Source: Mizuhopecten yessoensis
Taxonomy: Eukaryota
Assembly (NCBI RefSeq): GCF_002113885.1
Contig: NW_018408919.1
Span: forward strand, 1,640,987-1,704,986
Reading direction: 5' to 3'
DNA: 64,000 bases
Shown: piece by piece, positions 23,781-54,592 of the stretch
Numbering within the stretch: the first letter of the stretch is position 1
Layout: each line of letters begins with the position of its first letter
Program-made: the position numbers and the translations under genes
Notes under the pieces: generated by a model
Databases searched by the model: none
What the model saw: the letters and a program-made list of their open reading frames with translations, nothing else
Told to the model about the DNA's origin: nothing

Positions 23781-26700
23781 TTACACAATGCCTGGTTTCT
23801 TAAGCGACAATGCTATTTTCTGGAGAATGTGATAATCTGGCGCCATTACGTCTTCTGACATGGTACTTTGTGCGTCCTCTTCTCGCTCCTCGCCTACACC
23901 GGAAAATGAAGCTGAGCGTTTACCACACCCAGGCACAACTGAAGTTAAATTAAAACAAATCTTAATTTCATATTGATAATGAAGTAAACGTTGTTGACTC
24001 TATAGATATTTCATAATTAGAATAAAGTATATTTATTTCTGTTTCTTTGTGTCTAACAATTGATAAAATGAGTAATGCAAAGTTATATAGCAAACGTCAT
24101 TGACATCATAAGCAGATAACTAATATCTCGGGTATAAACACAAATATTTTCCCCGCTATGCAAACGTCTCGCACATATACAACCACGCAAACATACCTCC
24201 TTCAACCATGTTCTCGGCGACGTGAGCTTGGTCAGAAATTTTAAGGGCAGCACAAAATTCCTCGAATCCTGATTCTTTTGTACAAAGGACATCTACAAGT
24301 CGTAAAATCCTCTCTATTCTTCCAGACGGTGCCAGGACATACTCGGACAGTCGAGGAGATATCACAGATTTCGTCACCAGATGAGGGAGCACCAATGAAA
24401 CATCAAGCATGTTGTCGCACAGATATGCTACATTTTGAAGAAGTTTCTCCTTTTCTTTTGGTGCTAAAGGTTTGCCTGAATATAAGCAATACTGTAGCAG
24501 CAATACTATGAATTAATCTAGAAGTGATTACAACAATTGCGTTAAACTTTACGATAAGCTAACTATATCACTACCTTCATAACTGATGTGATAGGTTGGA
24601 CATATGGTACAGTTGCGTCTTTGATGGCATGGACGGAATAAATGAAGTGCACCAGTATTATCCCTTGGAATATGTGGGTAGGTTAATTAGCATCCACACA
24701 ATCAGAGATGCAACCAAATACAGAAATTCTGAATCAGAATTATATATGACAAATTGTCATTTGTAACAAAATGGACAGTAAATTATATAATTAATGATAA
24801 AGATTGTAACCATCAACTTATAACATGTAAGATAGCTAGTATCGATAGGGAGCAGCACTTAACACAAAAATACATTTGGGGTCAAATCTTGCGATTTAGG
24901 TAACGCCGCACAGTGACTGACATAGGTGTTGTTGAATTTTAGATAGTGCTATAGGGTCATCCATCTATGGCGGTCAGGTCCATCATGGATGACATAGATT
25001 TGGGAACGAGAGTGTGAACCCCCCAAACCAGACATGGGTAACTGTCTTTGCCATATGTCACATCTAGCATTGTTGTTTTGCTTGTTGTGTTACACGTTGA
25101 TGCTTCATTACATCATAGTTCACCAAGTTTTCTCTGTCCCTGGACAGGTGTCTCCACACTCTTCCCGGTGAGAGATATCCTTGTCTCACACTTGGGTTGA
25201 GACAGGGGGGTTCCCAAAATCATAGCAATTGCATGACGCCTGGACCGAATCTGAGAGTGCCTAATGAGGTATGCAGTTATATTCCACGGAATATAACAAT
25301 ACATCATCGTTATTTAACAAGGCTTAAATCAACCAAACGTTCATCAACGAGAACAGTCAAATGAATTATATATTGCCATAGAAGTTGTGATCAAAAATGT
25401 TTCTTCTTAATTAACCATAAAATGTTAAATTTCATCCACCAATGAATTATTTGTAATAATAATAACATGTAACATTTGATAAAGCGCCCTATCTAGTTAG
25501 AATAAGCTACTCTAAAGCGCTTTACAGTACAATGGTATACCATTTATACACTCAATGCAATTAGCATTTACATTAATCAATACAAGTTTGAGGAATTCGC
25601 AGGAACTGCTTTATCAGGGGCTTACTATTAGCTATATTCAACCTGGCTAATATTTCCCTATGTGTGTATGTCTTTATGTGTGTTAGAGTGGTATTGTGTT
25701 CTGTTTGAAGTGGGACCGTTTTCCAACAATATAATATATAGTGCCACCTCTCTTGAATGCTACAGCACAGATACCGCAACATCCATCTCAGACTATTTTA
25801 TACTCCACCTGGGTTGTTGGAGTTGTGTGGAACTTTCTTTGAATATTCCATGCGTGCGACGACTTCGGGGATCGAACCCCGGCCGCATGCGTAGAAGGCC
25901 GGAGTAATAAATACCCGACCAATCCGCCCATTTTGAATGGGAGTATACAAGATATGTTTTGACAAATCATAATTCAACATCACTCGTGCAATGAAATTTT
26001 AGCAAGAAATTTTGTTAAATTAACTAAATTGAGACTAGAGGAAAAACAGAAATGCAAAACCAATAAAATAAAAGCCAGTAGTTTGGGTGACATATATGAT
26101 GCAAAGTCAATAATAAAAGTCCGATACCTTTTCCCGTGTTTCCACTTGCTACATGACAAGCTCCCAAAAAGTCACGGATGTGCACAGCTTCGGGTTTCTT
26201 CGCCCATTCTCGGATCACCTGATGAAATTTCTCGTCTTCCTCATCGTCACCATAACGTTGGGTAATTGTATGAAGAACACTCTCCTCGATGTGCAATGCT
26301 CTACCCAACATATGGAAGCCCTTTCCTATCAATTTTCGTATAAACATCATGAAGCAAATTTCGATTTGTGACAAACTGTATCAAATTACCATTTCTTTTC
26401 ATTTAAAAAGAAATAAAAAGATTTTGTTTTTAATTGTAGACTTGTAGTTTAATTTAACTTATTCTTAATCAAATGTGGTCGAAAATGTTCCTAATGAGTC
26501 CAATCTGCTGTGAAGCATTAAACCTCAAAGTAGTCTAACTAAACCATTTGTCTTTCAACACTTTCTCATATGCCACAATCGATGCATCGTCATACTTTAT
26601 AAAGGCAAATTCACTGGACAAATGGTGGCAACATAACGAGATTTTACTCTATGATTTAACCAATGGTTCAGTAACATACATTTACATTTAAAGCATTGGT

Positions 26701-28323
26701 ATTTATCTCAAATAAATCAGTCAATAATAGTACATAAATCAATAAATATACAGATAACTTTTTACCTTGTGCTTGCATTTTAGTGCAGTAAAAATTCAGT
26801 TCTGCCGGAATTTGCACCTCTGAATGTTTGCCACGGGATACATTCTGTTGGTTTTGCAGTAGTTGCTACGTTATCCAATTTAATACACAAGAACACAACA
26901 TCAGCAGAAATAAAAGAACATGTTTTAAATATTCCTTACACAGGGGTATCTTTCTGAATCTTGGGTGCACTGGATAGGTCAACTGTGGGCCTCTTTATAA
27001 ACAATGTTTTTTCTATGATTCTAGTATTTCCCTTATCTATATTATTCAGTAATTTTTTATGAAACTTCATTATATATATAGCGTTTATAGTCTTTTTATA
27101 ATAACTATGACTGTTTCTATCTTTAAAGTAGTGAAATATCTATTTTACGAAGATCAACATGATACCAANAGCACTCTTTAAAAACGTAAATTAATAAATT
27201 ACAAATGAATAAAATAATGCGATAATTGTTTATGACATTGTCTTTGCTTCACTGTATCTGTTTGGTATGTATCACTGAAACGATCGTTTCTTCTTATGGA
27301 TTGACGAATTGAAAATAAACACTTAGCATTGCTTTAAAGTAGATATCAAATATCTGTGCGTGCTCTTTATAAAATGTATATCTTACCTGTATCCCAATAC
27401 TGATTTTCTCAACCTGTCCATCCGTATGAGTTTGTACCTGTCGACATTCATTTACAGACTTTCTCACCTCCAGGACGAGCTTCAGTAAAGTATTGTCACG
27501 TGATTTATCGGAATTAACCAAATATTTTTGTAGTTCTTGAAGTTTACCATTCACCTGAAAATAGTTTCCCTGCTAGTTGAATTGAATTCAATGGAAATAT
27601 GAATCATAACCTGTCAAAACATGCAAAATGATTACACATTAGTGACGTCGCTTAGGGAACAAAAATTAATCTGCTGCCCTCAATACAATACTTTGGATCT
27701 ATATCTTTTCTTTTCTCACTTGTACTCGTTTTGTTTTCGTGAATGTCTACCTAGACATCCGTCCTCGTATTCCTGGGTTGTTTCGAAGTCGTTAAACCCA
27801 AAACAAACAAACGAACAAACAAGCAAACAAACAAAAGCATCTATGAAGTGGTGATCTCTGATCTGTTAACCATTTGTTAACCATATACAATATGATAATA
27901 ATCTAGCAGAAATATCCTAAACAGCTAAAGTGCCTGAAACACTTATACGAGAACTGTCACAGTTCATTTCCCTCACAGACCTTCAGTTGATAAATGACGT
28001 ATATACAGTACCTTGGAAAGGTCATTCTCCGTTTTAGCCAGCCTCCTACTAATAGACAAATGGCGAGCTTCCAGAATTTGAATAACATCTTGGAGTTTGG
28101 AAACCTCTTCAGACCCAGGTTTATTACCAGCACTAAACGGTCTAGGAGGTCTTGTAGTAGCATTACTCGTCGAACTCAATTGTGTGAACCTTTTATGAAG
28201 TGAATCTTTCCTACGGTCATTCTCATTCATCACTTGGTCATTATCTCTAGTATAAGACAAAACACGATCTTTCAATAAATTATAAATTTCCTTAAGTGTC
28301 TGTTCCTCTCCACGTGCAGTCAT
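23781..28323 (-). CDS. Paralogue B: coiled-coil + Death domain + CARD protein, 404 aa, 6 coding exons
   Basis: Exons 28323-28012, 27554-27387, 26865-26766, 26325-26128, 24475-24197 and 23938-23781. GT-AG, phases 0,0,1,1,1; total 1215 nt to TAA. An acceptor at 28345 implies an upstream non-coding exon. Confidence 0.92.
24197..24475 (-). CDS. Paralogue B CARD exon
   Basis: LLQNVAYLCDNMLDV..VLPHLV...RIERILRLVDVL...GFEEFCAAL..SDQAHVAE; TTCAG|GC acceptor and GGAG|GTATGT donor. Confidence 0.92.
25470..25905 (-). mobile_element. Meta-domain-like tRNA-SINE in intron 4 of B (matching copy in D at 49245-49685)
   Basis: B box (reverse complement GGGATCGAACC), Meta-like core ATAGTGCCACCTC.CTTGAATGCTACAGCACAGATACC, and an L2-like tail (reverse complement of TGTAAAGCGCTTTAGAG). 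Confidence 0.65.
26128..26325 (-). CDS. Paralogue B Death-domain exon
   Basis: GKGFHMLGRALHIEESVLHTI...DEKFHQVIREWAK...IRDFLGAC; GATAG|GA acceptor and AAG|GTATC donor. Confidence 0.87.
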
Positions 28324-28569
28324 TTGTATGTCGGTTTAGCGTACCTGTCAACAAGAGTAGCTTTAAGTTATACATAGTGTATAGTTTACAAACATACCTT
28401 GTTTTAGGTTCAACAAGATGCATAAAAGATGGAATAGTATGCTTAAATGTTAACCCCATGATGAGTTTTATTTTTCAAAAATATATTAAACATCTATCTC
28501 TGTTGATATTAATAAACTTAATATACACAGCTATCACAATGATACATACATAAATAAATAAAAATAAAT

Positions 28570-31026: not shown

Positions 31027-31028
<2 letters not shown>

Positions 31029-31057
<29 letters not shown>

Positions 31058-32027: not shown

Positions 32028-35000
32028 TTACATAATGCCTCGATTATGAAGCAACAGGGCTATGCTACGAAGAATGTCATGATCAGCCACCATCGCGTCT
32101 TCTGGCATGGTGCTTTGTGCGTCCTCTTCTCGCTCTTTGATTGTAACGGAAAAAGAGGCTGAGCGTTTACCACATTCAGGCCTAACTTGACCTGAATAAA
32201 AAGAGAGTCTTGATTTTAACACTTGTAGAGATGAAAACCATATTCAATGGTTTAACAAGAAATGTATTGAGCGTATATAGATAGATCCCTTAAATACTAT
32301 TCAAGTTAGAAAATTGTTTTTATCTTTTTAAAATTTTCTGTTGTTTACTTTTTTTTTTATGTAAACATGATAAATATATCAAATCCCCTATTCGCGCTAT
32401 GCAAACATCTCTCCCCCTTTATCGCCCCCCCCCCCCCTTACACCGCAACACATCCTATCACACACAACCCCAACCTCTCGACCCCTAATATACACAGCTA
32501 CACAGCTTCCACTCCTCGTACACCCATAACACCTAGCAAACATACCTCCTCCAATCATGTTCTCGGCGACATGAGCTTGATCAGAACTTTTAAGGGCAGC
32601 ACAAAACTCCTCAAATCCAGATTCTTTTGTACAAAGGACATCTACAAGTCGTAAAATCCTCTCTATTCTTCCAGACGGTGCCAGGACGTACTCGGACAGT
32701 CGAGGAGATATCACAGACTTCGTCACCAGATGAGGGAGCACCAATGGAACATCAAGCATGTTGTCGCACAGATATGACACATTTTGAAGAAGTTTCTCTT
32801 TTTCTTTTGGTGCTAAAGGTTTGTCTGAATTCAAGCAATACTCTAGATTATATTTTCTTGGCTTCGTGGCTTTCAATTAGACATGGCTAAGAGAGTTAAC
32901 ACTACAGACCTTAAAAAACGTTTGTAAATATTACAATACTAAAATGTATGCCGTATAAAAGGGCATATGTTTGATTGAAGGATGTTTGCAATATAAGGGC
33001 ATGTGATGGAAATTACGATATTGAAAAATCTTAAAATGTGAGCTGCTTGTTCATTTCATTAAGGTACAAAATAACACCGGACAATCGATGATGATGCGTA
33101 ATAAATAATTTCAAATCTTAAGACTGTTAGACATACATAATGCAAAGTCAATAATAAAAGTTCATGACCTTTTACCGTGTTTCCACCTGACATATGACAA
33201 GCCCCCACAAAATCTCGGATGTGCACATTTTTGGATTTCTTCGCCCATTCTCGGATCACCTGTTGAAATTTCTCGTCTTCCTCATCGTCACCATAGCTCT
33301 GGTTAATTGTCCCCAGTACGCTCTCCTCGATGTTCAATGCTCTGCCCAACTTGTGGAAGTCTGTACCTATCAATGTTTTAATGTAAACCTGATGACATCG
33401 TTAAAGTTATTCCTGATCCTTAGATTTTTAAGCATACTCAAAATTAACTAAATTGTCCATGAGCCGTGAGGAAAAACAACTTGATATTGTTGTTATTTAA
33501 TTACTTAGCATATGGAGTTAAATATGAAGATAAATTTGAGTTACAGACTTGGCCGAATATAATAATCTCCATCAAGGTTATTGTTATACATCATAGTTTA
33601 TTGCGATACAATTAGAACATTAAGAGAGAAAAAAATCGTAGAGGGAAATGCTATTGGCTATGCAACTATATTTTTCCGTAAACGTATACGTAATATACAG
33701 TACAAACCACGATATGATGACCCTCTTTATATTTGTATAAAAACATCACTATATCAGCATAATTTTCAGTTTTCTTGACACTTTTGCTATATCGATATTA
33801 CGTCTAACTTTACAATGTAAAGGGCACTGGACACATGGGGCAATAAAACGAAGACTGTCTGTATAATTTACGCAATGATTGAGTAAAATACATATATTTT
33901 AACCATATATACTGGTATTATAGGAAACAATAACGCTTTACCCTGGGCTTGCATTTTGGAGCAGAAATAATTCAGTTCTACTGGAATCGGCACCTCTCGA
34001 AGATTCCCAGCGGCTACATTCTGTTGGTTTTCCAGCAGTTGCTGTCACAATCCAAATATAACTTATTTTATAACAAGTTTCTGAATATTCGTCAATGATT
34101 TCAATTTTCGCCAAGTGTTAATCTTGCCATTCAAATTAAATTTCCATACTGAAGGGAAAAAGAACTGTATATGGTGTTGTGTATAAGATTTTTAAATGGC
34201 TGTAAAGAAACATCTTTCTTAAACATATGAACAAAATTTCATTTGTTATTGTTATTTATAATTCACTGCACCTTTGCTCTTTACCTCTTACCTGAATCCC
34301 AACGCTGATTTTCTCAACCTGTCCATCCGTATGAGTTTGTGACTGTCGACATTCATTTACAGACGATCTCACCTCCAGGAGGAGCTCCAGTACAGTGTTG
34401 TCACGTGATTTATCGGAGTCAAGTATACCAACCAAACTTTTCTCTAGTTGTTGAAGTTTATCATTCACCTGAAAATATTTTCATTTAAGTCGATTTAAAA
34501 AGTTAACAGTGACCGAGCGCTATGTATAATTTCGAACATGGCATCGACTACGTTATTTACATTAATATGCTTCAGGGAACGGTTTTTATCTCACCTGGTC
34601 CGAAGATTGGAATTTAACCACCGATTGGAATTTAACTAAATTTGACTTGAAGCATCCATAGTTGGTTGGGATTCAAAATTGTACAAATGGCGGGGCTGAC
34701 CCCCCAGGAGGCTGAGGGGCGTGGCCAAAAGAGGGCAGTTTGGCTATATTGCTATAAACGACTTCTCCTGTAGAACTATGCCATGGATATCAATACTATT
34801 TGGTGGGAAGCATTCATGGGAGGCGGGGATTCAAAATTGTACAAATGGTCTGGCCCCACCCTTGGAGAAATAGTCCCTGGGTCATAACTTTGAAACGGTT
34901 GAGATCCCCACTCCAAAACTATATATACAAATGCTGGGCATAAAGAGACGAGTGCAGTCATGATATTAGAATAAACCCTGGAGTCTGACCGAAAACCTAG

Positions 35001-36316
35001 GGACCTAGTTTCGGAGTCACAGCTTGGAAACAGATAAGATCCCCACCCTATAACCATATATACAATTGCTGAGTATAAAGAGATGGATGCACATACGCGT
35101 CCAGGATGGCCTCGGGATCTGCCCCACCCTTGGAGAATCAATTCCTGGGTCGAAACTTCGAAACGGTTAAGATCCCCACCCGAAAACTATATATACAAGT
35201 GTTGGGCATAAAGAGACGAATGCAGTCATGATATTAGAATTGACCCCAGGGTCTGCCCTATCCTTGCAGACTTAACCCCTGGGTCACAACTTTGAAGCGG
35301 TTGAGATCGCACCCCCAAAACTATATATACAAATGCTTGGCATAAAGAGACGAATGCAGTCATGAAATTAGAATTGATCCTGGGGTCTGGGCACAACCCT
35401 AGGGACCAGGTTTCTGAGTCACAGGTTGGAAACAGTTGAGAACCCCATCCCAAAACCATACATAAAATTGCCGGTCATGAAAAATCTAATACAGATATGC
35501 TACAAGGATTGGCCTTGGGGTCTGGCCTATTCCCTTGGATCTCATTTGGAGAATATTTTGCCATGATTGCTGAGATATCCAGGTGAGCGATACAGGCCCT
35601 CTGGGCATCTTGTTTTATTATGATATTAAAATATTTTTACTTTGACAGCTTCTATTATTAGCCTCACTTGTTATTACTATCCCTTATTATTTGTTTTCGT
35701 GGAATACTAGAATGGGGCTGGTTTTAATTGAAAAAAATAAATTATTTTGGTGTTTCCAGTCAGTATAATTTTGTACTGTGACGAAATAAACAACGTCAGA
35801 GAGTTTGATTGTAATTTGTCAATTTGTCGTTAAATATAACTCGTTCAGCAGTATGCTATAAGATTCGTTTTGAAAATAATACTGATGCGAAAAATATTAC
35901 TGTAAAACATTTTGTTCCTTTAATTTCGAACGTTTTTATCCTCTGACATTTTGACAACTGCGTTCATTTTACTACAAAGCTACATTCAAATGCAATAACA
36001 ATACCTTAGTAAGCACAGTCTCTGTTTTTGCCTGCTCCCTACTTATTGACAAATGGCGACTTTCCATAATTTTAATGACACGCTTCACTTTTGCATCTTC
36101 TTCTGACATTTGTATACTATCAGCACTTCTTGGTCTGGGAATGTCACTAGAATCACTACTCGTCGACCTCAATTTTCTGGCCGTTTTCTTTAGTGTATCT
36201 TTAATGCGGTCGTTTTCATTTACTACACGTTCTTTATCTCTGGTTAGAGACAAAACACGATCCTTCAACAAATAATAAATTTCCTTGAGTGTCTGTTCCT
36301 CTCCACGTCCCGTCAT
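32028..36316 (-). CDS. Paralogue C: coiled-coil + Death domain + CARD protein, 409 aa, 6 coding exons
   Basis: Exons 36316-36005, 34468-34292, 34041-33942, 33366-33169, 32824-32546 and 32191-32028. GT-AG, phases 0,0,1,1,1; total 1230 nt to TAA. An acceptor at 36335 implies a 5' UTR exon. Confidence 0.92.
32546..32824 (-). CDS. Paralogue C CARD exon
   Basis: Near-identical to the B and D CARD exons; canonical splice sites. Confidence 0.92.
33169..33366 (-). CDS. Paralogue C Death-domain exon
   Basis: GTDFHKLGRALNIEESVLGTI...EKFQQVIREWAK...IRDFVGAC. Confidence 0.87.
34584..35614 (+). mobile_element. HINE/CvA-like element in the first coding intron of C
   Basis: TTTTTATCTCACCTG start, internal diverged repeats, CAGGTGAGCGATACAGGCCCTCTGGGCATCTTGTT end. 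Confidence 0.75.
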
Positions 36317-39300: not shown

Positions 39301-40892
39301 AATATTCCTTTTTACAGAAAGGTTTGTCCCATGGTTGAGGGAAGGTGTTTAGCCCCGTACCATCTGTACCGGTCACATTCCGGTACTTAATTCAATATAT
39401 ATTTATATATATATACTTTATGTTTATGCCTATTATCATTGTTGACATTTAATTGTAAATGTATGACGGGAGAAGGCTGTGATAAATTGTAAAAACTTGT
39501 GCCCCCATCCCTAGTTCAATTTTATTGGCACCGAATATATGTTTGAAGCTAAATACATTTAAATTCTGAATATTGGCAAATGTGCAATTAACTTCTGATG
39601 ATGAACAATTACTGTTCAATAAGTTTGAATACGGACTTAGAAATCATATTACTTGGTTTCATAGTGCGGTAAGAAGTTTCAGTTGCCTAACGGCCCCTCT
39701 CTGGGGGCCCCTATGGAAACCGTTTCATCTCGCTCACATGTACACCACTTGTGTTTACAGCCTAGTCAGGTGACGTTTTCGGCGCTATTTTTAACAGGGT
39801 TTTCCCGAACAATTCAAGTGGTCAAACTGGACATTTGGAACGGACTATGAATATGGGGATAGCGGGGTAACATAAGTGGAAGTGCATACAATACATACAT
39901 TCATTAAAAAAATATGGCTCTTCACGTGATGTCCCTTTAATGATAATATGATTTGCCATCGAGCTATGTGGCTATTTACAGCTCTTGTTGAACGTAACTG
40001 TGAAACTAAAAGCATATATTCCGAGTGTTTTATTGTGGAAACCTGTGTCTTGTGTCATGCCATATTATAAAAGTTGACATTTTGTTACACCACACATGTA
40101 CGTGTATATGAGTAGAGAAATAAGGAGCTTCAGCAGTCTGGTTGAATTACATTATAAACCTGGTCAATCCCTACCGAAACCAGTTCTAACAACTTTATGA
40201 ACTTCTCCGTTTTGGTCTCCGAATTCAGATTTGACTCTATTTCACTTCCTTAATTGTTAGAATAAAACCAACCTCAAAACGAAAAATGTACATTTCTATT
40301 AATTTAGCATGATAAATATATATGGTAAATGCTTACCTTCTGGACAGGTTCAGCTGTACGAAAACATACACAGGAGTTTGACTTTTAAAAGTAGAACCAG
40401 CACATTCTAAGGACAGCTAGCTCACGTTTGGTGAAGTTAAGAAGACATTGACCAAAGTTTAAGAAACTACCTCAAAATCGAATGTTGATTCCTGCTACCA
40501 CGGAATTGGATCTAAGTCCGTGCTGATACGCACAATTGAGGGTATTTATTTCAAAAAATTTAAACATATTTACATACAAAGGATAGGTTTGTACGTACGG
40601 CATGAGTAACTATTATCACAAAGGTACAGTGTATATCAATGTGGTGTCGTTAGCAAGCAATTATTGACAAACTTTAAAAAAAACCTCAATGATTGCCTAT
40701 ATAAAGGAATGTATTGATGATGTAACATATACCTTATACAGTGTAGTTACAGTATAAAGTGATTTAAAACTCCATTATGTTTCGTTCTTAAAGTGAATGT
40801 GTATATATGTACAGAAAACATTTGTTTTGCATTTCCTTTTGAGTGCCTCGTCAGTCCACTTGTTGTTATTATGAACTCATCTTTAGTTTTGA

Positions 40893-41568
40893 TTTTTAGC
40901 TCACCTGCCCGAAGGTCAAGTGAGCTTATGCCATGGTGCGGCGTCCGTCGTCCGTCCGTCGTCCGTCTGTCCGGCGTCAACTTTTTACTTTTAAACAACT
41001 TCTTCTCAATAACCAAAAGGCCCAGGGTACTGATATTAGGCCTGTAGCATGCTGGTATGAAGGGCTACAAAGTTTGTTAAAATAAATGACCTTGACCCTC
41101 TTTCAAGGTCAAAGGGGTCAAATGTCGTAAAATCTTCAAACGACTTCTTCTCAATAACCAAAAGATCCAGGGAACTGATATTGGGCCTGTAGCATGCTCG
41201 GATGAAGGGCTACCAAGTTTGTAAAAATGAATGACCTTAACCAATTTTCAAGGTCACAGGGGTCAAATGTTTTAAAATCTTCAAACAACTTCTCAATAAT
41301 CAAAAGGCCCAGGGTCCTGAAATTAGGTCTGTAGCATGCTAGGATGAAGGACTACCAAGTTTGTTCAAATGAATGACGTTGATCCACTTTCAACCTGATG
41401 TCCTTGTTCGACATTCAAGGTCACAGGCGTCTTTTTTAAAATCTTTTAATAGGTTCTTAAGAATCAAACATTGATATTCTGCCTGTAGCTGTATTTTAGT
41501 CCACTTTTAAGATTACAAGTGTGAGATTAATACCAGGTGAGCGATGCAGGCCCATTGGACCTCTTGTT
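40893..41568 (+). mobile_element. HINE with 3 x 145-bp internal repeats
   Basis: TTTTTAGCTCACCTG start, (CGTC)n microsatellite, units at 40998/41143/41288, CAGGTGAGCG..GGCCCATTGGACCTCTTGTT end; inserted in a T-run with no clear TSD. Confidence 0.85.
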
Positions 41569-43232
41569 CACTTTTCTGGTGACGCCGAGGAACAGTTTCA
41601 TATTTCCTTGCAATGGATATGTTGAAAATATATAAGAAATATTGAATGTTATATATCACCCAAATTACATCTGTCAAAAATCCTATTACCTATAGGTTGA
41701 CAGATGGAATTTGGGTTATATATAACATTCAATATTTCTTATATATTTTCAATCTCTCTCAAATTCCGTACTCGCTTATCAAAATCATATATCATGGATA
41801 TCCACCGATACAATGTTTTGTTAGCCGAGTAAAAACCCCTTGAAATATATCGAAACGCTCAATCAACTCGCGCAGTCTGAGATGTCAGATAAACAAATAC
41901 GATTAGTGTTGCCTACATATTTTCAAGGAGATAGCACTGGTCATCAAGCTAGCCATATTTAAGTCCTTTTCTATGATATCTAGTGATAATAATCGTATAT
42001 CAGTACTAAGGGGGACGCAACTTTTATGAAATTTCTGGATAATGACATTCAATTACATTTGGGTTTTAAAATGATAGTGTACTTCACTGATTTAAACTAT
42101 TTGACTATGCAAACTCAAAGACATATATTTACATTTGCATGGCATTGTCACTATATAGCCTCTTTGAAAGCTGTGTCGTTGATAGGACTTTAATTACCAT
42201 GCCGCACGAGACATAATTACCATGCCGCACGAGACACAATTCTTAGCGTATTAATTACAACACTGACCGGAACTACAATATCCAATGTAAATAAACATGA
42301 CGGCTGCTGAAATATCGCTGGGCATTGTGAGATTTGATAATGTCATTGTAAATTTATGTGCAAAATAAAAAATAAAATAAAAAACACTTTTATTACAACG
42401 AAAACAAGACCAAGGTCTGCAATATCGTACAAAATGCACATCGGTTGAAATCACCAATGCCGGCAATGGAAACAATTTTAACGCTCATGCAATTTATCAG
42501 AATATCGTCTGTTACACTGCACTGATCAACAGGGGCTCGTTATAAATGTCTGAAATACACATATTCTATAGACCTATTGAGTCATATGTTACAGACCTAC
42601 TGATATGAGTCACAGCACACATAAACATTTGTCATTTCAGACATTTGTAACGAACCTGTGCTCCGTCGCAAGATCACTCACTTCAAACGCTATCAGTTTC
42701 ACGCGTCTCGGATCCACGGTTCCTCAGTTTCAGACGACATGTCAAATAACGATGCTGTTATAGAATCTACCGACTGTTGTCGGGTTCCCATACAATCAAC
42801 AAATACATTCACGCCTGGATTCTTCACAAAATGAGCAAAGAGAAAAGTTCGAATTAACTTCCAAAAATAACTCCCTCGTTGAGGTCAAGGTTCCATTCAC
42901 GGTGTTCACTGTATTTATCCATGCGCGAAATTTGTTCCGGGGGAAAATCGAAACAATTTCAAATCTAACTTTCAGCTCAGATTTCTATTGAAAAACTGGA
43001 ATCACCCTATAGACATATCATACGCAATTGTATTGATACTAAATTGTGGAATAAATTTGAAGTGTTTGTTAAAATGTCAAAGTACTACTTTGTTTGCCAA
43101 TCAGCACGCGACAAAACGCTGTTCAAACTATTGAACGAAATTGTGTGAACTGTCGATAAGGCGGGCATTTTTAATTTTTAATTATAAATTATAAGTTAAA
43201 AAAGAACATAAGAGGCAGAGAAAACGTAAATA

Positions 43233-43394
43233 TAAGTATTGAACTGTTTTTGTATGATATTTATGATCTATTTGAATGACACAGCTTTGCAAGCAAACAA
43301 ATCATAATGCGCTAGCGCGCACTATGTTGTTTGCTTGCAAAGCTGTGTCATTGAAATAGATCATAAATACCATACAAAAACAGTTCAATGCTTA
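43233..43394. repeat. Long near-perfect palindrome (~75-bp arms)
   Basis: TAAG.ATTGAACTGTTTTTGTATG.TATTTATGATCTATTT.AATGACACAGCTTTGCAAGCAAACAA and its reverse complement surround GCGCTAGCGC. Confidence 0.9.
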
Positions 43395-44905
43395 AATAGA
43401 CCTCACAAGCTTGATCATTTACATTATACAAATAAATCCAGGTATTGACCGAAGTTAAAGGCTACAATTGTTTTATTATTTTACAAAACAGTAATGTAAG
43501 CAATCTAAAAAGAAAACACAACAAAAAAGCTTCGGAAGTGGGACGGTGCATTGTTTGGAGACACGTCATAATTCTATTTTTAGAAACACCCAGTCCTTCA
43601 ACAAAAATCACGCGCTCTAAATCAATATCGTTTTTTATCGGTGGACACTTGATGCACTCCTGGCCAATCATTTGTCGGGAGTAATATGAAAAAATTATAA
43701 TCTTCAATTTCAATGAAACGATATTGACAGATCAAGTAAGCACTCCAGTAATCATCTTCACTTAAACAAATTATTTAGAGCTATTCGTGGTGTTTCATAA
43801 AAATGCTTTAACCATAATTTCACATGACGTCATTTGTATTACAAGTGATTTAAAGCTCTATTATGTTTCGTTCATAACGTGATGTGTATTAATGTACAGA
43901 CAACATTTTTTTTTTGTTTTTTTTGTTGTTTTTCATTTAATTTTGAGTGCCTCGTCACTCCACTTGTCGTCATTATGCACTCATCTTTAGTTTTGATTTT
44001 GTACTTTTCTGTAGACGCCGAGGAACACTTTCATATTTCCTTGCAATGGATATGTTGCTTATTCCGAGTGTTTTATTGTGGAAACCTGTGTCTTGTGTCA
44101 TGCCATATTATAGAAGTTGACATTTTGTTACACCACACATGTACGTGTTTATGAGTAGAGAAACAAGGAGCTTCAGCACTCTGGTGGAATTACATTATTA
44201 ACCTGGTCAATCCCTTCCGAAACCAGTACTAACAACTTAATGAACTTCCCCGGTTTGGTCTCCGAATTCAGATTTGACTCTATTTCACTTCCTTAATTGT
44301 TAGAATAAAACCAACCTCAAAACGAAAAATGTACATTTCAATTAATTTAGCATGATAAATATATACGGTAGATGCTTACCTTCTGGACAGGTTCAGCTGT
44401 ACGAAAACATACACAGGAGTTTGACTTTTAAAAGTAGAACCAGCACATTCTAAGGACAGCTAAGAAATTACCTCAAAATCGAATGTTGATCCTGCTACCA
44501 CGGAATTTGATCTAAGTCCGTGCTGATACGCACAATTGAGGGTATTTATTTCAAAAGATTTAAACATATTTACATACAAAGGATAGGTTTTTACGTACGG
44601 CATGAGTAACTATAATCACAAAGGTACATTGCATATCAATGTGGTGTCCTTCTAACGTATCATTAGTAAGCAATTATTGTCAAACTTTAAAAAAAAATTC
44701 AATGATTGCCTATATAAAGGAATGTATTGATGATGTAACATATACCTTATACAGTGTAGTTACAGTATAAAGTGATTTAAAACTCCATTATGTTTCGTTC
44801 TTAAAGTGAATGTGTATATATGTACAGATAACATTTGTTTTGCATTTAATTTTGAGTGCCTCGTCAGTCCACTTGTTGTTATTATGAACTCATCTTTAGT
44901 TTTGA

Positions 44906-46014
44906 TTTTTAGCTCACCTGCCCGAAGGGCAAGTGAGCTTATGCCATGGTGCGGCGTCCGTCGTCCGTCCGTCGTCCGTCTGTCCGGCGTCAACTTTTTA
45001 CTTTTAAACAACTTCTTCTCAATAACCAAAAGGCCCAGGGTACTGATATTAGGCCTGTAGCATGCTGGTATGAAGGGCTACAAAGTTTGTTAAAATAAAT
45101 GACCTTGACCCTCTTTCAAGGTCAAAGGGGTCAAATATGTTAAAATCTTCAAACGACTTCTTCTCAATAACCGAAAGGCCCAGGGTACTGATATTAGGCC
45201 TGTAGCATGCTGGGATGAAGGGTTACTAAGTTTGTTCAAATGAATGACATTGACCCACTTTCAAGGTCACTGGGGTCAGGTGTCTTAAAATCTTCAAACA
45301 ACTTCTTCTCAATAACCAAAAGGCTCAGAGTACTTATATTGGGCCTGTAGCATGCTGGGATAAAGGGCTACCAAGTTTGTTCAAACGAATGACCTTGACC
45401 CACTTTCAAGGTCACTGAGGTCAGATGTCTTAAAATCTTCAAACAACTTCTTCTCAATAACCAAAAGGCCCAGGGTACTGATATTGGGCCCGTAGCATGA
45501 TGGGGTGAAGGGCTACCAAGTTTTGTTCAAATGAATGACCTTGACCAACTTTCAAGGTCAAAGGGGTCAAATGTAAAATATTCAAACGACTTCCTTTCAA
45601 TAACCAAAAGACCCAGGGTACTGATATTGGGCCTGTAGCATGCTGGGATAAAGGGCTACCAAGTTTGTTAAAATGGATGACCTTAACCAATTTTCAAGGT
45701 CACAGGGGTCAAATGTTTTAAAATCTTCAAACAACTTCTCAATAACCAAAAGGCCCAAGGTCCTGAAATTAGTCCTGTAGCATGCTGGGATGAAGGACTA
45801 CCAAGTTTGTTCAAATGAATGACCTTGATCCACTTTCAACCTGATGTCCTTGTTCGACATTCAAGGTCACAGGCGTCTTCTTTAAAATCTTTTAATAGGT
45901 TCTTAAGAATCAAACATTGATATTCTGCCTGTAGCTGTATTTCAGTCCACTTTTAAGATTACAAGTGTGAGATTAATACCAGGTGAGCGATGCAGGCCCA
46001 TTGGACCTCTTGTT
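44906..46014 (+). mobile_element. Duplicated HINE with 6 x 145-bp internal repeats
   Basis: Same ends and flanks as 40893-41568; units at 45011, 45156, 45301, 45446, 45589 and 45734. Confidence 0.87.
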
Positions 46015-47255
46015 CACTTTTCTGGTGACGCCGAGGAACAGTTTCATATTTCCTTGCAATGGATATGTTGAAAATATATAAGAAATATAGAATGTTATAT
46101 ATAACCCAAATTACATCTGTCAAAAATCATATTACCTATAGGTACTCGCTTATCAAAATCATATATCATGGATATCCACCGATACAATGTTTTGTTAGCC
46201 GAGTAAAAACCCCTTGAAATGTATCGAAACGCTCAATCAACTCGCGCAGTCTGAGATGTCAGATAAACAAATACGATTAGTGTTGCCTACATATTTTCAA
46301 GGAGATAGCACTGGTCATCAAGCTATCCATATTTAAGTCCTTTTCTGTGATATCTAGTGATAATAATCGTATATCAGTACTAAGGGGGACGCAACTATTA
46401 TCAAATTTCTAGATAATGACATTCAATTACATTTGGGTTTTAAAATCATAGTGTACTTCACTGATTTAAACTATTTGACTATGCAAACTCAAAGACATAA
46501 AGACCTCACAAGCTTGATCATTTACATTATATGAATATATCCAGGTATTGACCGAAGTTAAAGGCTACAATTGTTTTATTATTTTACAAAACAGTAATGT
46601 AAGCAATCTCAAAAAAAAAAAAAAAAAGCTTCGGAAGGGGGACGGGGCATTGTTTGGAGACACGTCATAATTCTATTTTTAGAAACATCCAGTCCTTCAA
46701 CAAAAATCACTCGCTCCAAGTCAATATCGTTTTTTATCGGTGGACACTTGATGCACTCCTGGCCAATCACTTGTCGGAAATAATATGAAAAAATTATAAT
46801 CTTCAATATCAATGAAACGATATTGACAGATCAAGTAAGCACTCCAGTAATCATTGTCACTTAAATTATTTAGAGCTATTCGTGGTGTTTCATAAAAATG
46901 CTTTAACCATAATTTCATATGACGATATTTGTATTACAAGTGATTAAAAGCTCTATTATGTTTCGTTCATAACGTGATGTGTATAAATGTACAGACATTT
47001 TTGTGGGTTTTTTGTTGTTTTTCATTTAATTTTGAGTGCCTCGTCACTCCACTTGTTGTCATTATGCACTCATCTTTAGTTTTGATTTTGTACTTTTCTG
47101 TAGACGCCGAGGAATACTTTCATATTTCCTTGCAATGGATATGTTGCTTTTGTTGAGAAAATGAAGAAGTAGGAGAGGAAGTCTTTTTAAACGCCTAGCA
47201 TTTTTACCACTTAAATACACAAAGATGATGTCCAAACTCGCGCTATAGTCAGCAG

Positions 47256-50200
47256 TTACACAATGCCTCGTTTCTTAAGCAACAATACTATTTTCTGGAG
47301 AATGTCATAATCTGGCGCCATTACGTCTTCTGACATGGTACTTTGTGCGTCCTCTTCTCGCTCCTCGCCTACACCGGAAAATGAAGCTGGGCGTTTACCA
47401 CACCCAGGCACAACTGAAGTTAAATTAAAACAAATCTTAATTTCATATTGATAATGAAGTAAACGTTGTTGACTCTATAGATATTTCATAGTTAGAATAA
47501 AGTATTTTTATTTCCCGTTCTTTGTGTCTAACAATTGATAAAATGATTAATGCAAAGTTATATAGCAAACGTCTTTGACATCATAAGCTGATAACTAATT
47601 TCTCGGGTATAAACAAAAATATGTTCCCCGCTATGCAAACATCTCGCACATATACAACCACGCAAACATACCTCCTTCAACCATGTTCTCGGCGACGTGA
47701 GCTTGGTCAGAAATTTTAAGGGCAACATAAAATTCCTCAAATCCAGATTCTTTTGTACAAAGCACATCTACAAGTCGTAAAATCCTCTCTATTCTTCCAG
47801 ACGGTGCCAAGACATACTCGGACAGTCGAGGAGATATCACAGATTTCGTCACCAGATGAGGGAGCACCAATGGAACATCAAGCATATTGTCGCACAGATA
47901 TGATACATTTTGAAGAAGTTTCTCCTTTTCTTTTGGTACTAAAGGTTTGCCTGAATATAAGCAATACTGTAGCAGCAATACTATGAATTATGCGAGAGGT
48001 GATTACAACAATTGCGTTACGATAAGCTAACTATATCACTACCTTCATAACTGATGTGATAGGTTGGACATATGGTATAGTTGAGTCCTTGATGGCATGG
48101 ACGGAATACACCAGTATTATCCATTGGAATATGTGCGTAGGTTAATTAGCATCCACACCATCAGAGATGCAACCAAATACAGAAATTCTGAATCAGAATT
48201 ATATATGACAAATTGACATTTGTAACAAAATGGGCTGTAAATTATATAATTAATGATAAAGATTGTTACCATCATCTTATAACATGTAAGATAGCTGGTA
48301 TCGATAGGGAGCAGCACTTAACACAAAAGTACATTTGGGGTCAAATCTTAAGATTTGGGTAACACCGTGCATTGATTGACGGGGGTACTGTTGAATTGTA
48401 GATAGTGCTTTAGGGCTATATCCATCTAGTGGCGGCCAGGTCAGTAATGGATCACACACCAGCCAGGGGTAACTGTGTTTGCCATATGTCACATCTAGCA
48501 TTGTTGTTTTGGTTGGGGAAAAGATTAGAAGTTAACTTAAATTGCTGCACGAACCTCATTTCGTATGTACAGTAGGTGGTACATAATCATGAATGGTTAA
48601 TAGTGTATAGATTGTTAAAAGTACTTGGGGAGAATTCCACAGGAAATCTTAAACTGAGAGACGGGATGCGGGGTTCGGGATTGTGAGCTACTGGAGAGAG
48701 ACCAGAGAAGGCCTCGGCTGGAGGTGCCTGGGATGGCTCGGGTACAACACTTGGTGTGCCTTAGAACTACATGTATGTGTTTGATGTTGTATCGCTATAT
48801 AATCTTGTGCAGGTAGATTTGCTGTCGTGTTCCAGAAGCATGTTGTTCAGCTTGTTGTGTTACACGTTGATGCTTCATTACATCATAGTTCACCAAGTTT
48901 TCTCTGTCCCTGGACAGGTGTCTCCACACTTTTCCCGGTGAGAGATATCCTTGTCTCACACTTGGGTTTAGACAGGGGGGTTCCCAAAATCATAACCATT
49001 GCACGACGCCTGGACCGAATCTGAGAGTGCCTAATGAGGTATGCAGTTATATTCTAAGGAATATAACAATATATCATCGTTATTTAACAAGGCTTAAATC
49101 AACCAAACGTTCATCAACGAGAACAGTCAAATGAATTATATATTGCCATAGAAGTTGTGATCAAAAATGTTTCTTCTTAATTAACCATAAAGATGTTAAA
49201 TTTAATCCACCAATGAATTATTTTGAATAATAATAATATGCAACATTTGAGAAAGCGCCCTATCTAGCAAGAATAAGCCACTCTAAATCGCTTTACAGTA
49301 CAAAGGTATACCATTTATATGCAATCAATGGATTTACATTAATCAATAAAAGTTTGAGGACTTTGCAGGTGATGCCTTATCAGGCGCTTACTATTAGCCA
49401 TATTCAACATGGCTAATATCTTCCTATGTGTGTATGCCTGTATGTGTGCTATAGTGGTATTGTGTTCTGTTTGTAGTGGGACCGTGTTCCAACGGTATAA
49501 TTTATAGTGCCACCTCTCTTGAATGCTACAGCACAGATACCGCAGCATCCACCCCAGACTATTTTATACTCCACCTGGGTTGTTGGAGTTGTGTGGGCAG
49601 GAGAAAAACACTTTCTCTGAATATTCCATGCGTACAACGACTTCGGGGATCGAACCCCGGCCGCCTGCGTGGAAGGCCGGAGTGTTAAATACTTGACCAA
49701 TCCGCCCATTTTCAATGGGAGTATATAAAATATTTTTTGACAAAATCGTAATTCAACATCACTCGTGCAATGAAATTTTAGCAAGTAAATTAACTAAATT
49801 GAGACTAGAGGAAAAACAGAAATGCAAAACCAGACTTCCAATAACATAAAAGCCAGAAGTTTTGATGACATATATGGTGTAAAGTCAATAATAAAAGTCC
49901 GATACCTTTTCCCGTGTTTCCACTTGCTATATGACAAGCTTCCAAAAAGTCCCGGATGTGCACAGCTTCGGGTTTCTTCGCCCATTCTCGGATCACCTGT
50001 TGAAATTTCTCGTCTTCCTCATCGTCACCATAACGTTGGGTAATTGTCTGAAGTACGTTCTCCTCGATGTTCAAGGTTCTACCCAACATTTGGAAGTCTT
50101 TTCCTATTAATTTTCGTATAAACATCATAAAGCAAATTTCGATTTGTGACAAACTGTAGCAAATTACCATTTTTTGTCATTTAAAAAGAAATAAAAAGAA

Positions 50201-53200
50201 TTTTGTTTTTAATTGTAGACTTGTAGTTTAATTAAACTTATTCATTGACAAATTTGGTCGAAAATGTTCCTAATGGGTCCAATCTGCTGTTAAGAATTAT
50301 ACCTCAAAGTAGTCTAACTAAACCATTTGTCTTTCAACACTTCCTCATACGCCACAATTGATGTATCGTCATACTTTATAAAGGCAAATTCACTGGACAA
50401 ATGGTGGCAACATAACGAGATTTTACTCTATGATTTAACCGATGGTTCAGTAACATGCATGTACAAACAAGAGGATCGTGGGCTTTAACGGTCACCTGAG
50501 TGCTAAACCGGATGTTATCGATGTTGCCAAATGAAAAAGAAATCATTTTGTAACAAAGGTAACTTGAACTACCTGTAATGCAAAAGTAGTGTGAAAGATC
50601 TGGGTAGTATATGTACTATGTACAAATAGTGGTTCTGTCTGTCAGCTGAATTATGTTAAAGCAACTTAAGACCCTTCCATCTATAAGTAAAGTTAACCTC
50701 CTCCCCAGGGGGAAACGTGAGACCAAAGGGTCAACAAATTCACAATTTTGGTGAAGCACATTAAGACCCGTTTATCTATGAAGAGTATTTGATTCTACCA
50801 TATCTGGATCTTGTGAAGAAGATTTTTGAAATTTTAGTCAGTTTAACTCTTTTTTGCCCCGCCCCTCAGGCTCCTTGGGGCTGGGGACCATATAATTCAC
50901 AATTAAACTATAAGTAAAGTTAACCTCCTCCCCAGGGGGAAACGTGAGACCAAAGGGTCATCAAATTCACAATTTTGGTGAAGCACATTAAGACCCGTTT
51001 ATCTATGAAGAGTATTTGATTCTACCATATCTGGGTCTTGAGAAGAAGATTTTTGAAATTTCAGTAAATTCAACCCGTTTTGGCCCCACCCATTAGCCCC
51101 TGGGGGTCAGTCAGGGCTGATATAAACTATAGTAAAGTTTACCTCCTCCCCAGGGGGAAACGTGATACCCCAGGGTCTTGAAATTCACAATTTTGTAAAA
51201 ACACCTTAAGACCCTTCCATTTATGAAGAGTATTTGATTCTACCATATCTGGGTCTTGAGAAGAAGATTTTTGAAATTTCAGTAAATTCAACCCTTTTTG
51301 GCCCCACCCATCAGCCCCTGGGGGTCAATCAGGGCTGATATAAACCATAGTAAAGTTTAACTCCTCCCCAGGGGGAAACGTGATACCCCAGTGTCATGAA
51401 ATTCACAATTTTGGAAAAACACCTTAAGACCCTTCCATTTATGAAGAGTATTTGATTCTACCATATCTGGATCTTGAGAAGAAGATTTTTGAAATTTTAG
51501 TCAATTTGACACCCTCCTCAGGACCCTGGGGGCTGGGGACCATTTAATTCACTGTATTTATGGACCTTTGGCCATGGAAGGTTTCTGCAAAATTTCATTG
51601 AAATTGGTTCAGGTACTTTGGAGAAAATGTCGAAAATGTAAATTGTTTAAGGACGCACGACGCACGACGCACGACGCCGGAAAAAGTTCGATCACGATAG
51701 ATCACTTGAGACTTTGTCTCAGGTGACCTAATAAAATGCATCTAAGTCATTGGTATTTATCTCAAATAAATCAGTCAATAATAGTACATATATCAATAAA
51801 TATACAGATAACTTTTTACCTTGTGCTTGTATTTTAGTGCAGTAAAAATTCAGTTCTGCTGGAATTTGTACCTCTGAAAGATTGCCACGGGATACATTCT
51901 GTTGGTTTTGCAGTAGTTGCTACCATATCCAATATAATACACAAGAATACAGCATCAGCAGAAATAAAGGAACATGTTTAAAATATTCCTTACACAAGGG
52001 TATCTATGAGAATCGTGGGTGTTCTGGATAGGCCCCTTTATAAACAATGTTTTCTCTATGATTCTAGTACTTTTCTTATCTATATTATTCAGTAAATTTT
52101 CATAAAATTTCACTATATACATGTATATACTGTTTTTTTGTAACAACTATGACTGTTTCTATCTTAGTGAAATATTTAATTTACGAAAATCAACATGGAG
52201 CAAAACAAACTTTAAAAAAGTAAATAAATAAAATATAAATGAATACAAGTATTAGCTTTCCAAAAACTAAGAGGGCTACCAACAGCATTATTTATTAGTA
52301 AGCAGTTATAGTACAGTGTGAGATAGATGGGTATGTAGAAGCTGGCGTAGTTATACTGATAATTTATTTAAAATATATATATAGGATTATTCCTCAAGGC
52401 CTGTACAAACCCTGTTACATAATATATACATGTGATTTCGTGTAAATGCCCTAACAGGGGCATCCATATCCAATAAGAAAGTGATAACATGAGTAGCATG
52501 CAACCAATGACTAGTACTACTTAAAATATTAGAATCAATGACAATTACAACGCAGGTCACACTTATACCAGATCCGGATTGTCAGGACCAGCATGTATTT
52601 TTTGGTATTTTTTAAAGTTATTGTGCAAGTTAGAAAAATTGTTATATAATTTAAAAGAACATATAAATACTTATACATAAATAAGAAAATTGAAAAAAAA
52701 AATTGGTTTAGTGACCCAGATCCTGCCAGGACCAAAACAGTCATTACTTAAACAAGGACAGGGAAAACCGGGACCAAATATTTATTTTAATTATAATTAA
52801 CTCAATTTTAAAGCTTATTTTATGTTGTTATTTCATGTAGGAAATACAAGAACACCATACTTAATGTTTAAATAAAATAAAAAAGATATGTTTCAAATAC
52901 TGTTTTTACTTGTTATTACGGCTTTTGTGATTTTGCTTTTTTACTAAAACCAGGTCTGGTAATGTCGTATGTTGGGTATGTTTTGGATTCCTGTTTCAAA
53001 TCATAATGCAATGCATATTTTTTTATACAAACTTGTGCTAAAATACATTTTTATTCAGGTCATATCAATTCATTAAGGTAGTTGCATTTAAAAACAAGAA
53101 AGAAACACATTAAAGCACTTGGTCCTGGTTTTCCGTCTAGTTCTGGTATTAGTATGAACCTGAAATGGCACAATTCGGAGCTCTCTGATTTTATCAATTC

Positions 53201-54592
53201 CCGACCATAACTTAACAACATCGCCGCCGTGCGTGGAATAGCAGAACAATGTCTTACAATCCTGTATGAACATGCGCATCTATCTGGCTTTATCCATCAC
53301 ATTTTGTTTGCAATTAATTTCCCCACTTGTACCTCTACGAATGGTGACATCACAGACAGCAGGTAACCAATCACTGCGTGTAAAGTATGTTATAATATAT
53401 GTTATATTTTCTTTGCTTCATCGTATCTTTTTGAAATGTTTGGCTGAAACGATCGTTTCTTCTTAAGAATTGACGAGAAAAATGAACACTTAGCATTGCT
53501 TGAAAGTGGATATCTTATTGCATCTGTGTGTGCTCTTAATAAAAATGTATATCTTACCTGAATCCCAACGCTGATTTTCTCAACCTGTCCGTCCGTATGA
53601 GTTTGTACCTGTCGGCATTCATTTACAGACGATCTCACCTCCAGGAGGAGCTCCAGTACAGTGTTGTCACGTGATTTATCGGAGTCAAGTATACCAACCA
53701 AACCTTTCTCTAGTTGTTGAAGTTTATCATTCACCTGGAAATATGTTTGATTGCTAGTTGAGTTGAATTCATTAGAATCATAAAACAGTCCTGTTTCGTT
53801 TGCCTATCGCAACGTGAACAATGTACATGTAACCACAGGTTTCGCGTCAAATATACAAAATTACTAAACATCAATGACGTCCTATTGTCTTTTTGTCGTA
53901 CGAGACGACTTATATGGGATCCTCTGCAGCATCGGGGATTTTTCGGTGTCTTCAACTTAAGGGACATCAAAGAGACCAAAATCGATCTGTTAACCACATT
54001 GCCACTTTGGATCTATTTTTTCCCTATTTCACTTGTCTACATTTTATTTTCGTTACTGTATACCTAGACATCCATAATCATATTTCCTTGGATGTTTCGA
54101 AGTCGTTAAACCCAAAATAAACAAACAAACAAGTAAAGAAACGAAAGAATCTATGAATTGGTGATCTCTGATCTGTTAACCATACAATATAATAATAATA
54201 ATAATAATCTAGCAGAAATCTCCTAAGCAGTTTAAGTGCCTGAAACACGTATGAGACAACTGCCACAGTTCATACAGTACCTTGGAAAGGTCAGTCTCCG
54301 TTTTAGCCAGCCTCCTACTAATTGACAAATGGCGAGCTTCCAGAATTTTGTTTACATCTTGGAGTTTGGAAATTTCTTCAGGCCCAGGTTTATTACCGGC
54401 AATAAACGGTCTAGGAGGTCCAGTAGTAGCATTTCCCATCGAACTCAATTGTCTGACCGTTGTTTGAAGTGTGTCTTTCATACGGTCGTTTGCATTCATC
54501 ATTTGGTTACTATCTTTAGTATAAGACAAAACACGATCCTTTAATAAATTATAAATTTCCTTAAGTGTTTGTTCCTCTCCACGTGCCGTCAT
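47256..54592 (-). CDS. Paralogue D: coiled-coil + Death domain + CARD protein, 407 aa, 6 coding exons
   Basis: Exons 54592-54281, 53734-53558, 51919-51820, 50103-49906, 47950-47672 and 47413-47256. GT-AG, phases 0,0,1,1,1; total 1224 nt to TAA. Introns and flanks align with B. Confidence 0.92.
47672..47950 (-). CDS. Paralogue D CARD exon
   Basis: 5 aa differences from the B CARD exon by my alignment; canonical splice sites. Confidence 0.92.
49245..49685 (-). mobile_element. Meta-domain-like SINE in intron 4 of D
   Basis: Same position and sequence as 25470-25905 in B. Confidence 0.65.
49906..50103 (-). CDS. Paralogue D Death-domain exon
   Basis: GKDFQMLGRTLNIEENVLQTI...EKFQQVIREWAK...IRDFLEAC. 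Confidence 0.87.
50466..51731 (-). mobile_element. HINE inserted in intron 3 of D (absent in B)
   Basis: Reverse complement of the 6068 family ends (CACTTGAGACTTTGTCTCAGGTGACCT; AACAAGAGG), (GACGCAC)n microsatellite and ~220-230-bp internal repeats. The B intron is uninterrupted at ~26680. Confidence 0.85.

Follow-up and report, generated by a model that had tools for sequence, protein, structure and literature searches.

A tandem cluster of Death-CARD genes in the scallop Mizuhopecten yessoensis: variable front ends, similar CARDs and the probable part of gene conversion

Among animal death-fold proteins, CRADD/RAIDD carries an N-terminal CARD followed by a C-terminal Death domain, and release of the CARD fragment in CARD8 and NLRP1 requires a FIIND, the beta-rich, autoproteolytic ZU5-UPA unit that precedes the CARD. 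CARD8 and NLRP1 are described as protease tripwires (PMC10249858). In primates, CASP1, CARD16 and CARD17 are tandem paralogues whose CARD has been homogenised repeatedly by gene conversion; the authors of that account predict that conversion preserves homotypic binding, and caution that patchwork genes disturb selection tests (PMC11383037). Here we describe four minus-strand tandem paralogues, A to D, in a stretch of 64,000 nucleotides from the scallop Mizuhopecten yessoensis (NCBI RefSeq assembly GCF_002113885.1, contig NW_018408919.1, positions 1,640,987 to 1,704,986; hereafter the window, in whose coordinates all positions are given). Each is expressed or annotated, and they encode uncharacterised proteins in which a helical region is followed by a predicted Death domain, a CARD and a tail. 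A sequence-only reading of the window had proposed that the variable N-terminus and near-invariant CARD of these proteins reflect diversifying selection on an input or decoy surface, and constraint or conversion on a shared output module. We find that between paralogues this pattern is probably due mainly to gene conversion, together with ordinary, stronger constraint on the CARD. The gene models, built from the sequence, agree on reading with the source-named proteins:

11376..18367, minus strand: gene A (P0005, 414 amino acids), the most divergent paralogue, its silent sites near or at saturation against B, C and D; coding exons 18367-18035, 16116-15840, 14716-14528, 12386-12114, 11548-11376
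23781..28323, minus strand: gene B (P0001, 404 amino acids); coding exons 28323-28012, 27554-27387, 26865-26766, 26325-26128, 24475-24197, 23938-23781
32028..36316, minus strand: gene C (P0002, 409 amino acids); coding exons 36316-36005, 34468-34292, 34041-33942, 33366-33169, 32824-32546, 32191-32028
47256..54592, minus strand: gene D (P0004, 407 amino acids); coding exons 54592-54281, 53734-53558, 51919-51820, 50103-49906, 47950-47672, 47413-47256
28165..28248, minus strand: hot spot of B, residues 26-53, where 14 amino acids differ from D; 5 of these 14 positions vary among individuals

Recounting bore out the numbers from which the sequence-only reading had started. B and D differ at 21 of 104 residues in exon 1, 14 of them within residues 26-53 (the 28-mers quoted for the two proteins are correct), and at 5 of 93 in the CARD exon, where 6 of 93 residues separate B from C; and the introns of B and D can be aligned, whereas those of C cannot. 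Both the contrast between exon 1 and the CARD (Fisher p=0.003) and the clustering of B-D differences in the hot spot (scan p=0.0007) are beyond chance, and residues 1-25 hold no replacement change between B and D. Two further features had not been remarked upon: C and D differ at only 2 of 59 residues in exon 2 and so are closer there than in their CARDs, and the divergence of the B and D introns falls from 5' to 3', as does that of their exons.

Much of the contrast lies in silent sites. The ratio of replacement divergence (dN) between exon 1 and the CARD exon, 3.9-9.3, is the product of a ratio of silent divergence (dS) of 3.0-3.8 and a ratio of omega (dN/dS) of 1.3-2.5, and on a log scale 57-80% of the contrast is carried by silent sites; in each of the three pairs of B, C and D, the CARD exon shows less silent divergence than exon 1 does (p=0.046, 0.0004 and 0.002). 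Compared with A, the silent sites of the CARD exon are saturated (proportion differing, pS, 0.78-0.86), and therefore they are not intrinsically frozen. In the same comparison the dN of exon 1 is 2.7-2.9 times that of the CARD, a sign that the CARD is under real constraint. Of the two causes offered earlier for the conserved CARD, constraint or conversion, both thus act, the second being seen in a mosaic of silent and intronic divergence with three main landmarks:

26758..27058 (best estimate 26,943), no strand: change point in B-D non-coding divergence, 16.1% upstream and 6.4% downstream; reached in 0 of 200 permutations
34292..34468, minus strand: exon 2 of C, 97% identical to exon 2 of D between flanking introns that cannot be aligned
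32546..32824, minus strand: CARD exon of C, with dS of 0.14-0.16 to B and D as against 0.26-0.55 in exons 1, 3, 4 and 6; its introns cannot be aligned

Between B and D, 115 of 788 bases differ in introns 1-2 and 142 of 2260 in introns 3-5 (p=9e-12). Since divergence falls just before exon 3, the Death exons, the CARD, the tail and the introns among them share a younger ancestry, and the change point near 26,940 appears to be the edge of a long conversion or crossover tract. In exon 2, C and D differ at 5 of 177 nucleotides and share a 9-nucleotide length difference from B, and B is set apart at 16 of the 21 variable sites (permutation of the C=D run, p=0.0002), consistent with an exon-limited conversion tract between C and D. 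The CARD exon of C is best read as an older tract of the same exon-limited kind (silent-site density, B-C, p=0.0013). Conversion is hence not specific to the CARD, as it also embraces the 3' half of B and D with its introns and exon 2 of C and D; because exon 2 encodes an N-terminal coiled coil, homogenisation is not particular to the output domain. In the history that we propose, A would have split first (silent sites saturated), followed by C (dS ~0.4-0.55) and then by B and D (~0.17-0.2). Exchanges after these splits would have made the CARD exon of C uniform with those of B and D, brought the 3' halves of B and D together, introns and all, and evened out exon 2 between C and D.

By analogy, this mosaic parallels the primate CASP1/CARD16 locus: the scallop CARD exon, too, appears homogenised between neighbours, as the silent-site deficit of exon 5 between unalignable introns suggests. 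The two loci differ in that none of the scallop copies has a caspase domain or is a CARD-only protein (all have 404-414 residues and keep the Death domain and the helical front), and in that scallop conversion also affects the coiled-coil exon.

Between the paralogues, the diversifying selection proposed for exon 1 is not supported: the outcome named beforehand as refuting it, an exon-1 dN/dS at or below 1 with divergence not above that of the adjacent intron, is the one observed. Exon-1 dN/dS between paralogues is 0.40-0.5. For B and D, exon 1 has dN 0.094 and dS 0.226, and it is less divergent (11%, 35 of 312 aligned bases) than intron 1 (17%, 58 of 346), with intron 2 at 57 of 442. By maximum likelihood (ML) on B, C and D, omega is 0.40 in exon 1 (below 1, p=0.0003) and 0.32 in the CARD exon (difference p=0.66), and in exon 1 model M2a brings no gain over M1a and no site class exceeds 1. 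Positive selection at the paralogue level was accordingly rejected, with Nei-Gojobori (NG86), modified Nei-Gojobori, ML M0 and M1a/M2a all negative. Within exon 1, ML omega is 0.11 for residues 1-25, 0.67 for 26-53 and 0.39 for 54-104, with purifying selection on the first (p=0.001) and the last (p=0.009); in the hot spot, B-D dN is 0.247 and dS 0.280, and replacements accumulate no faster than intronic changes (p=0.24-0.44). Omega in exons 2 and 6 (0.84 and 0.89) likewise does not differ from 1. Residues 26-70 are a poorly structured linker that is near-neutral between paralogues.

The domains of B are placed as follows:

28012..28323, minus strand: exon 1 of B (conserved helix 3-26, low-confidence helix 34-51 and loop 52-70, start of long helix 71-117), with replacement-rich allelic variation
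26128..26865, minus strand: exons 3-4 of B, predicted Death domain (about residues 178-258)
24197..24475, minus strand: exon 5 of B, CARD (residues 260-352), Pfam PF00619

The AlphaFold model of B (mean predicted local distance difference test score, pLDDT, 66) consists of a helix at residues 3-26, a low-confidence helix (34-51), a loop (52-70), two long helices (71-117 and 122-168), a helical domain (181-254), the CARD (265-351), a disordered tail and a last helix (387-398), with pLDDT below 50 at residues 26-43 and 45-70. Exon 5 encodes a CARD by both profile score (27.3 bits against PF00619, cut-off 23.9; 23.5 bits with the whole protein as query) and fold (Z 14.7-15.4 against Apaf-1/caspase-9 CARD entries, with a root-mean-square deviation, rmsd, of 2.4 over 92 residues for the entry at Z 15.4). 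The middle domain has, in the predicted model, a Death-domain fold, matching the RIPK1 Death domain (residues 179-258, Z 8.3, rmsd 2.3, 77 aligned) and that of FADD (158-258, Z 8.9, rmsd 1.9, 77 aligned) at Z scores that are middling for a model; the Death profile PF00531 stays below its cut-off in A, B and C (E 0.003, 0.096 and 0.007) and exceeds it in the mussel relatives P0007, P0008 and P0011. A sequence search of the PDB gave 0 matches at E<=1, profile searches found no TIR domain in A, B or C, no known sensor domain was found in these proteins, and the N-terminal 175 residues had no usable Atlas match by features and only generic helical matches by structure. The first helix (TLKEIYNLLK type) and the last (YDILQKI type) both score as amphipathic and are conserved to mussel-type relatives, in which the adjoining segments are not; their sites are 18035-18367 and 11376-11548 in A and the matching ends of B, C and D. 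A basic R-x-x-S motif, a possible kinase site, lies before the acidic tail.

Judged from this model, A to D are likely to be bipartite death-fold adaptors in cell death or immunity. The long helices would dimerise or oligomerise the protein, the Death domain would dock on an upstream Death-domain partner, the CARD would recruit a CARD-bearing caspase or adaptor, and conversion would keep the three CARDs cross-compatible; the conserved first and last helices could close the protein. CRADD/RAIDD is similar in having one CARD, one Death domain and no catalytic domain (B CARD model against the RAIDD CARD, Z 9.9), and differs in that the scallop proteins have the reverse order, with the Death domain ahead of the CARD, and are longer by about 175 helical residues at the front and by a tail of 50 residues.

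Allelic variation was followed in exon 1, intron 1 and exon 2 of B in 4 of the 10 DNA runs listed (X1, X2, X3 and X7). The B-type contigs of X1, X2 and X3 show 0 differences over exon 1 and intron 1, bar one unlisted letter in X1. X7 has no intron 1 of reference type, 9 of 457 bases being changed (2%), and in exon 1 two contigs with B-type flanks carry 9 listed differences, all replacements (T2A, R4H, Y14F, N15Y, P59R, F63L, R94K, L95Q, N100K). The middle of exon 1 comes from either of two contigs, one with R45T and F46V and the other with E34K, R38M, R45T, F46A and T47R, which brings the total to 11-16 differences of which 0-1 are silent; this exceeds the intronic level (p=0.048 for 11 differences, 0.004 for 15), and set against a neutral split of replacement (N) and silent (S) changes it gives p=0.04-0.06 at the intronic transition-transversion ratio, kappa, of 2. 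The B-type contig of exon 2 in X7 has one listed change, a silent one. Among the changes listed for RNA run X14, from another study, B exon 1 has at least six replacements and one silent change, three of them shared with X7; pooled, the listed changes are 18N:2S in exon 1 against 3N:3S novel ones in exons 4-5 (p=0.06). Replacement variants occur in the Death and CARD exons as well (H242Y, V241M, G311R), and at window position 24323 the CARD variant G311R is the sole form covering the site in RNA runs X12 and X13. In these two runs B exon 1 is barely covered at 93% likeness, with B-type 3' joints present; this gap in the contigs was not counted as evidence.

Of the 21 residues at which B and D differ, seven coincide with positions variable among individuals (p=0.026), and therefore part of the hot spot is recent, but the allelic changes span the whole of exon 1, and of the 17 residues that vary only 5 belong to 26-53. 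X1 and X7 also contain a contig with a D-like 5' end that is identical to B over about residues 19-33, a pattern suggestive of hot-spot patches being exchanged between loci or kept as ancestral polymorphism; the contig adds 4 silent differences (2 listed, 2 inferred), and with these pooled in, the per-site ratio of replacement to silent polymorphism (pN/pS) is 0.85. The test of exon 1 by polymorphism gave a weak positive, a replacement excess in one B haplotype (p ~0.004-0.06) that belongs to one animal and whose phasing is inferred. We judge the chances that B exon 1 is under recent diversifying selection among alleles to be about evenly balanced. Overall, constraint and conversion of the CARD stand from the earlier interpretation, diversifying selection on exon 1 between paralogues does not, and the alleles of B weakly favour such selection within the locus.

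This excess is what gives weight to a reading in which diversifying or balancing selection acts on exon 1 of B, and perhaps of D, as a surface for pathogen contact or as bait, with recent allelic turnover averaged away in the omega of paralogues and the converted CARD as a shared output; we regard it as possible but unlikely. The 11-16 differences with 0-1 silent against 9 of 457 bases in intron 1 speak for such a surface, as do the X14 changes and the pooled 18N:2S. The signal nevertheless comes from one divergent animal, three of the four DNA runs having the reference on B-type contigs; its phasing is inferred from depth and overlaps, and the anchored contigs alone give p=0.057-0.13. Several X7 variants are those seen in C or D, and conversion or ancestral states may account for them, pooling the D-like contig lowers the ratio as noted, the variable residues are not concentrated in 26-53, the RNA counts cover listed changes only, exon 1 of C shows 0, 1 and 0 differences in three RNA contigs, and no FIIND or known sensor domain was found.

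Equally tentative is a second alternative, that B and C/D are redundant young duplicates with constraint relaxed outside the CARD, so that the front end drifts and the excess among alleles reflects chance or slightly harmful variants. The omega values of exons 2 and 6 and of residues 26-53, none different from 1, agree with it, as does a hot-spot replacement rate not above the intronic rate. It fits less well with reading frames that are intact in all paralogues, with the splicing of B and C, and with purifying selection on residues 1-25 and 54-104; nor would drift be expected to raise replacement differences beyond the rate seen in introns.

A sensor or bait role of any kind for the front end seems to us doubtful at best, and its most elaborate form improbable: a FIIND-free bivalve tripwire, in which the first and last helices, conserved and amphipathic, would keep a TIR-less Death-CARD adaptor closed, the part of the front end that follows the first helix would serve as pathogen bait, turned over in living populations by replacement and by patch exchange among B, C and D, and conversion would keep one shared CARD output. 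The scallop proteins do resemble CARD8 and NLRP1 in placing a variable, partly disordered N-terminus before a conserved C-terminal CARD, and allelic changes could alter specificity. They differ in having a Death domain in between and no FIIND (no ZU5-UPA-type Pfam match at E<=0.5; the model lists helices only, the CARD directly following the Death domain). Signs of a positively selected N-terminal bait are mixed in the scallop genes, with omega below 1 and no M2a gain between paralogues and a weak replacement excess among alleles. Because the FIIND is absent, the likeness to a CARD8-like tripwire is one of analogy only. It is very improbable that B and D represent alleles of a single locus placed in tandem by the assembly, which would make the comparison one of haplotypes. 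In favour are an identity of 94% between their 3' halves and the local duplication situated between C and D, but non-coding divergence in the 5' half is 16% against 2% between real B haplotypes in intron 1, D has a C-type exon 2 with the 9-nucleotide length difference from B, and C sits between them.

Gene conversion with stronger CARD constraint therefore remains our preferred account of the paralogues, and several points weigh against it. For the CARD tract of C the run test falls short of significance (B=C p=0.45), and the argument there is one from silent-site density; the omega of residues 26-53 is indistinguishable from 1 (p=0.43); only three sequences are non-saturated, giving low power for site-level selection, and codon-bootstrap 95% intervals for exon-1 omega extend to 1.07-1.11; the allelic replacement excess is not readily produced by conversion and relaxed constraint; and the adaptor mechanism draws on predicted fold and general death-fold biology.

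A search of 1.84 billion representatives returned 32 matches, the nearest outside this scallop being Death-CARD proteins from Mytilus, Saccostrea, Pinctada and Lingula, or unnamed ones; none of the 32 was a close orthologue from another scallop, and no protein-level alleles of A to D were found in public collections. An N-terminal TIR domain is present in P0011 and falls below the cut-off in P0012. In a tree of 14 Death-CARD regions (16 aligned rows, of which one fragment and one near-duplicate were removed), the scallop genes fall together with mussel-type proteins that lack a TIR (support 91/93, not starred), and P0011 and P0012 fall in the sister group of this scallop and mussel-type group. 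The lophotrochozoan family thus shares the Death-CARD module, and the TIR-less mussel-type proteins also the first and last helices; the scallop copies differ from the bivalve TIR-Death-CARD proteins in lacking the N-terminal TIR. In mussel relatives the segment matching B residues 26-70 is longer and cannot be aligned, and the CARD or Death-CARD module occurs with TIR, without it or with a kinase domain among P0011, P0012, P0013 and P0032. Front ends among the relatives have, on these sequence comparisons, changed over long times. Queries with P0012 and P0006 gave this cluster as their best matches in the genome, so that no closer TIR-bearing relative was found there, its absence not being proven; outside the cluster, P0012 weakly matched two CARDs. 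The TIR-bearing relatives may be among the proteins covered by a 2017 survey of bivalve TIR proteins. Searches by organism, domains, architecture, locus identifiers and resequencing, judged in part by title, found no paper on these genes; in the relevant part of PMC7053062, 'DD-CARD' denotes a CARD-type death fold and not a Death-then-CARD architecture.

In the protein collection the four genes are uncharacterised entries (LOC110440319, -365, -387 and -388). The RNA runs were examined over the stretch with B and C, D and A lying outside it: four of the five joints of B occur in all four runs and the fifth in a spliced contig from one run, and two joints of C are listed. Unspliced contigs of X12 and X13 cross C intron 4 (32797-33198) and may stem from DNA, from pre-mRNA or from a transcript that keeps the intron. 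For D there is another database model (P0003, 295 amino acids), which runs past the exon-4 donor (49805-49906) and has no CARD, being either a misannotation or a Death-only isoform; in A, the equivalents of exons 2 and 3 of B, C and D are joined without an intron (15840-16116). Exon searches of the genome match this cluster only (4, 3 and 4 matches), and no additional copies were found within 60 kb on either side. Neighbours within that distance include exons of a U1 zinc finger, a fatty acid hydroxylase and Nup54 (L005:8102-8629, L010:9071-9373, L013:7177-7503), and no immune domain was found in the 68 of 84 long frames scanned. Downstream of D, 40017-47149 is a local duplication with units of 3-4 kb, and ~43400-44060 holds a third copy of the end of the B/D 3' untranslated region with no coding exon. 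Tandem arrays occupy 1-2149, 3681-4601, 45006-45839, 50681-51506 and 57378-58382 (units of 64, 44, 145, 218 and 35 bases), of which the 218-base array sits in D intron 3 and resembles 6100-6990 in reverse; short palindromic elements resembling miniature inverted-repeat transposable elements lie at 5745-5882, 10050-10178, 16997-17153, 41622-41752 and 43230-43397.

The appearance of a variable sensor joined to an invariant effector is here probably largely a by-product of gene conversion, in an uncharacterised family of bivalve Death-CARD adaptors, some of which have a TIR domain as their front end and others a helical region. Should the excess among alleles prove real, B could be tested directly, by scoring resequencing data that already exist, as a candidate polymorphic immune gene driven by pathogens in a scallop that is farmed, and as a candidate CARD sensor that works without a FIIND.

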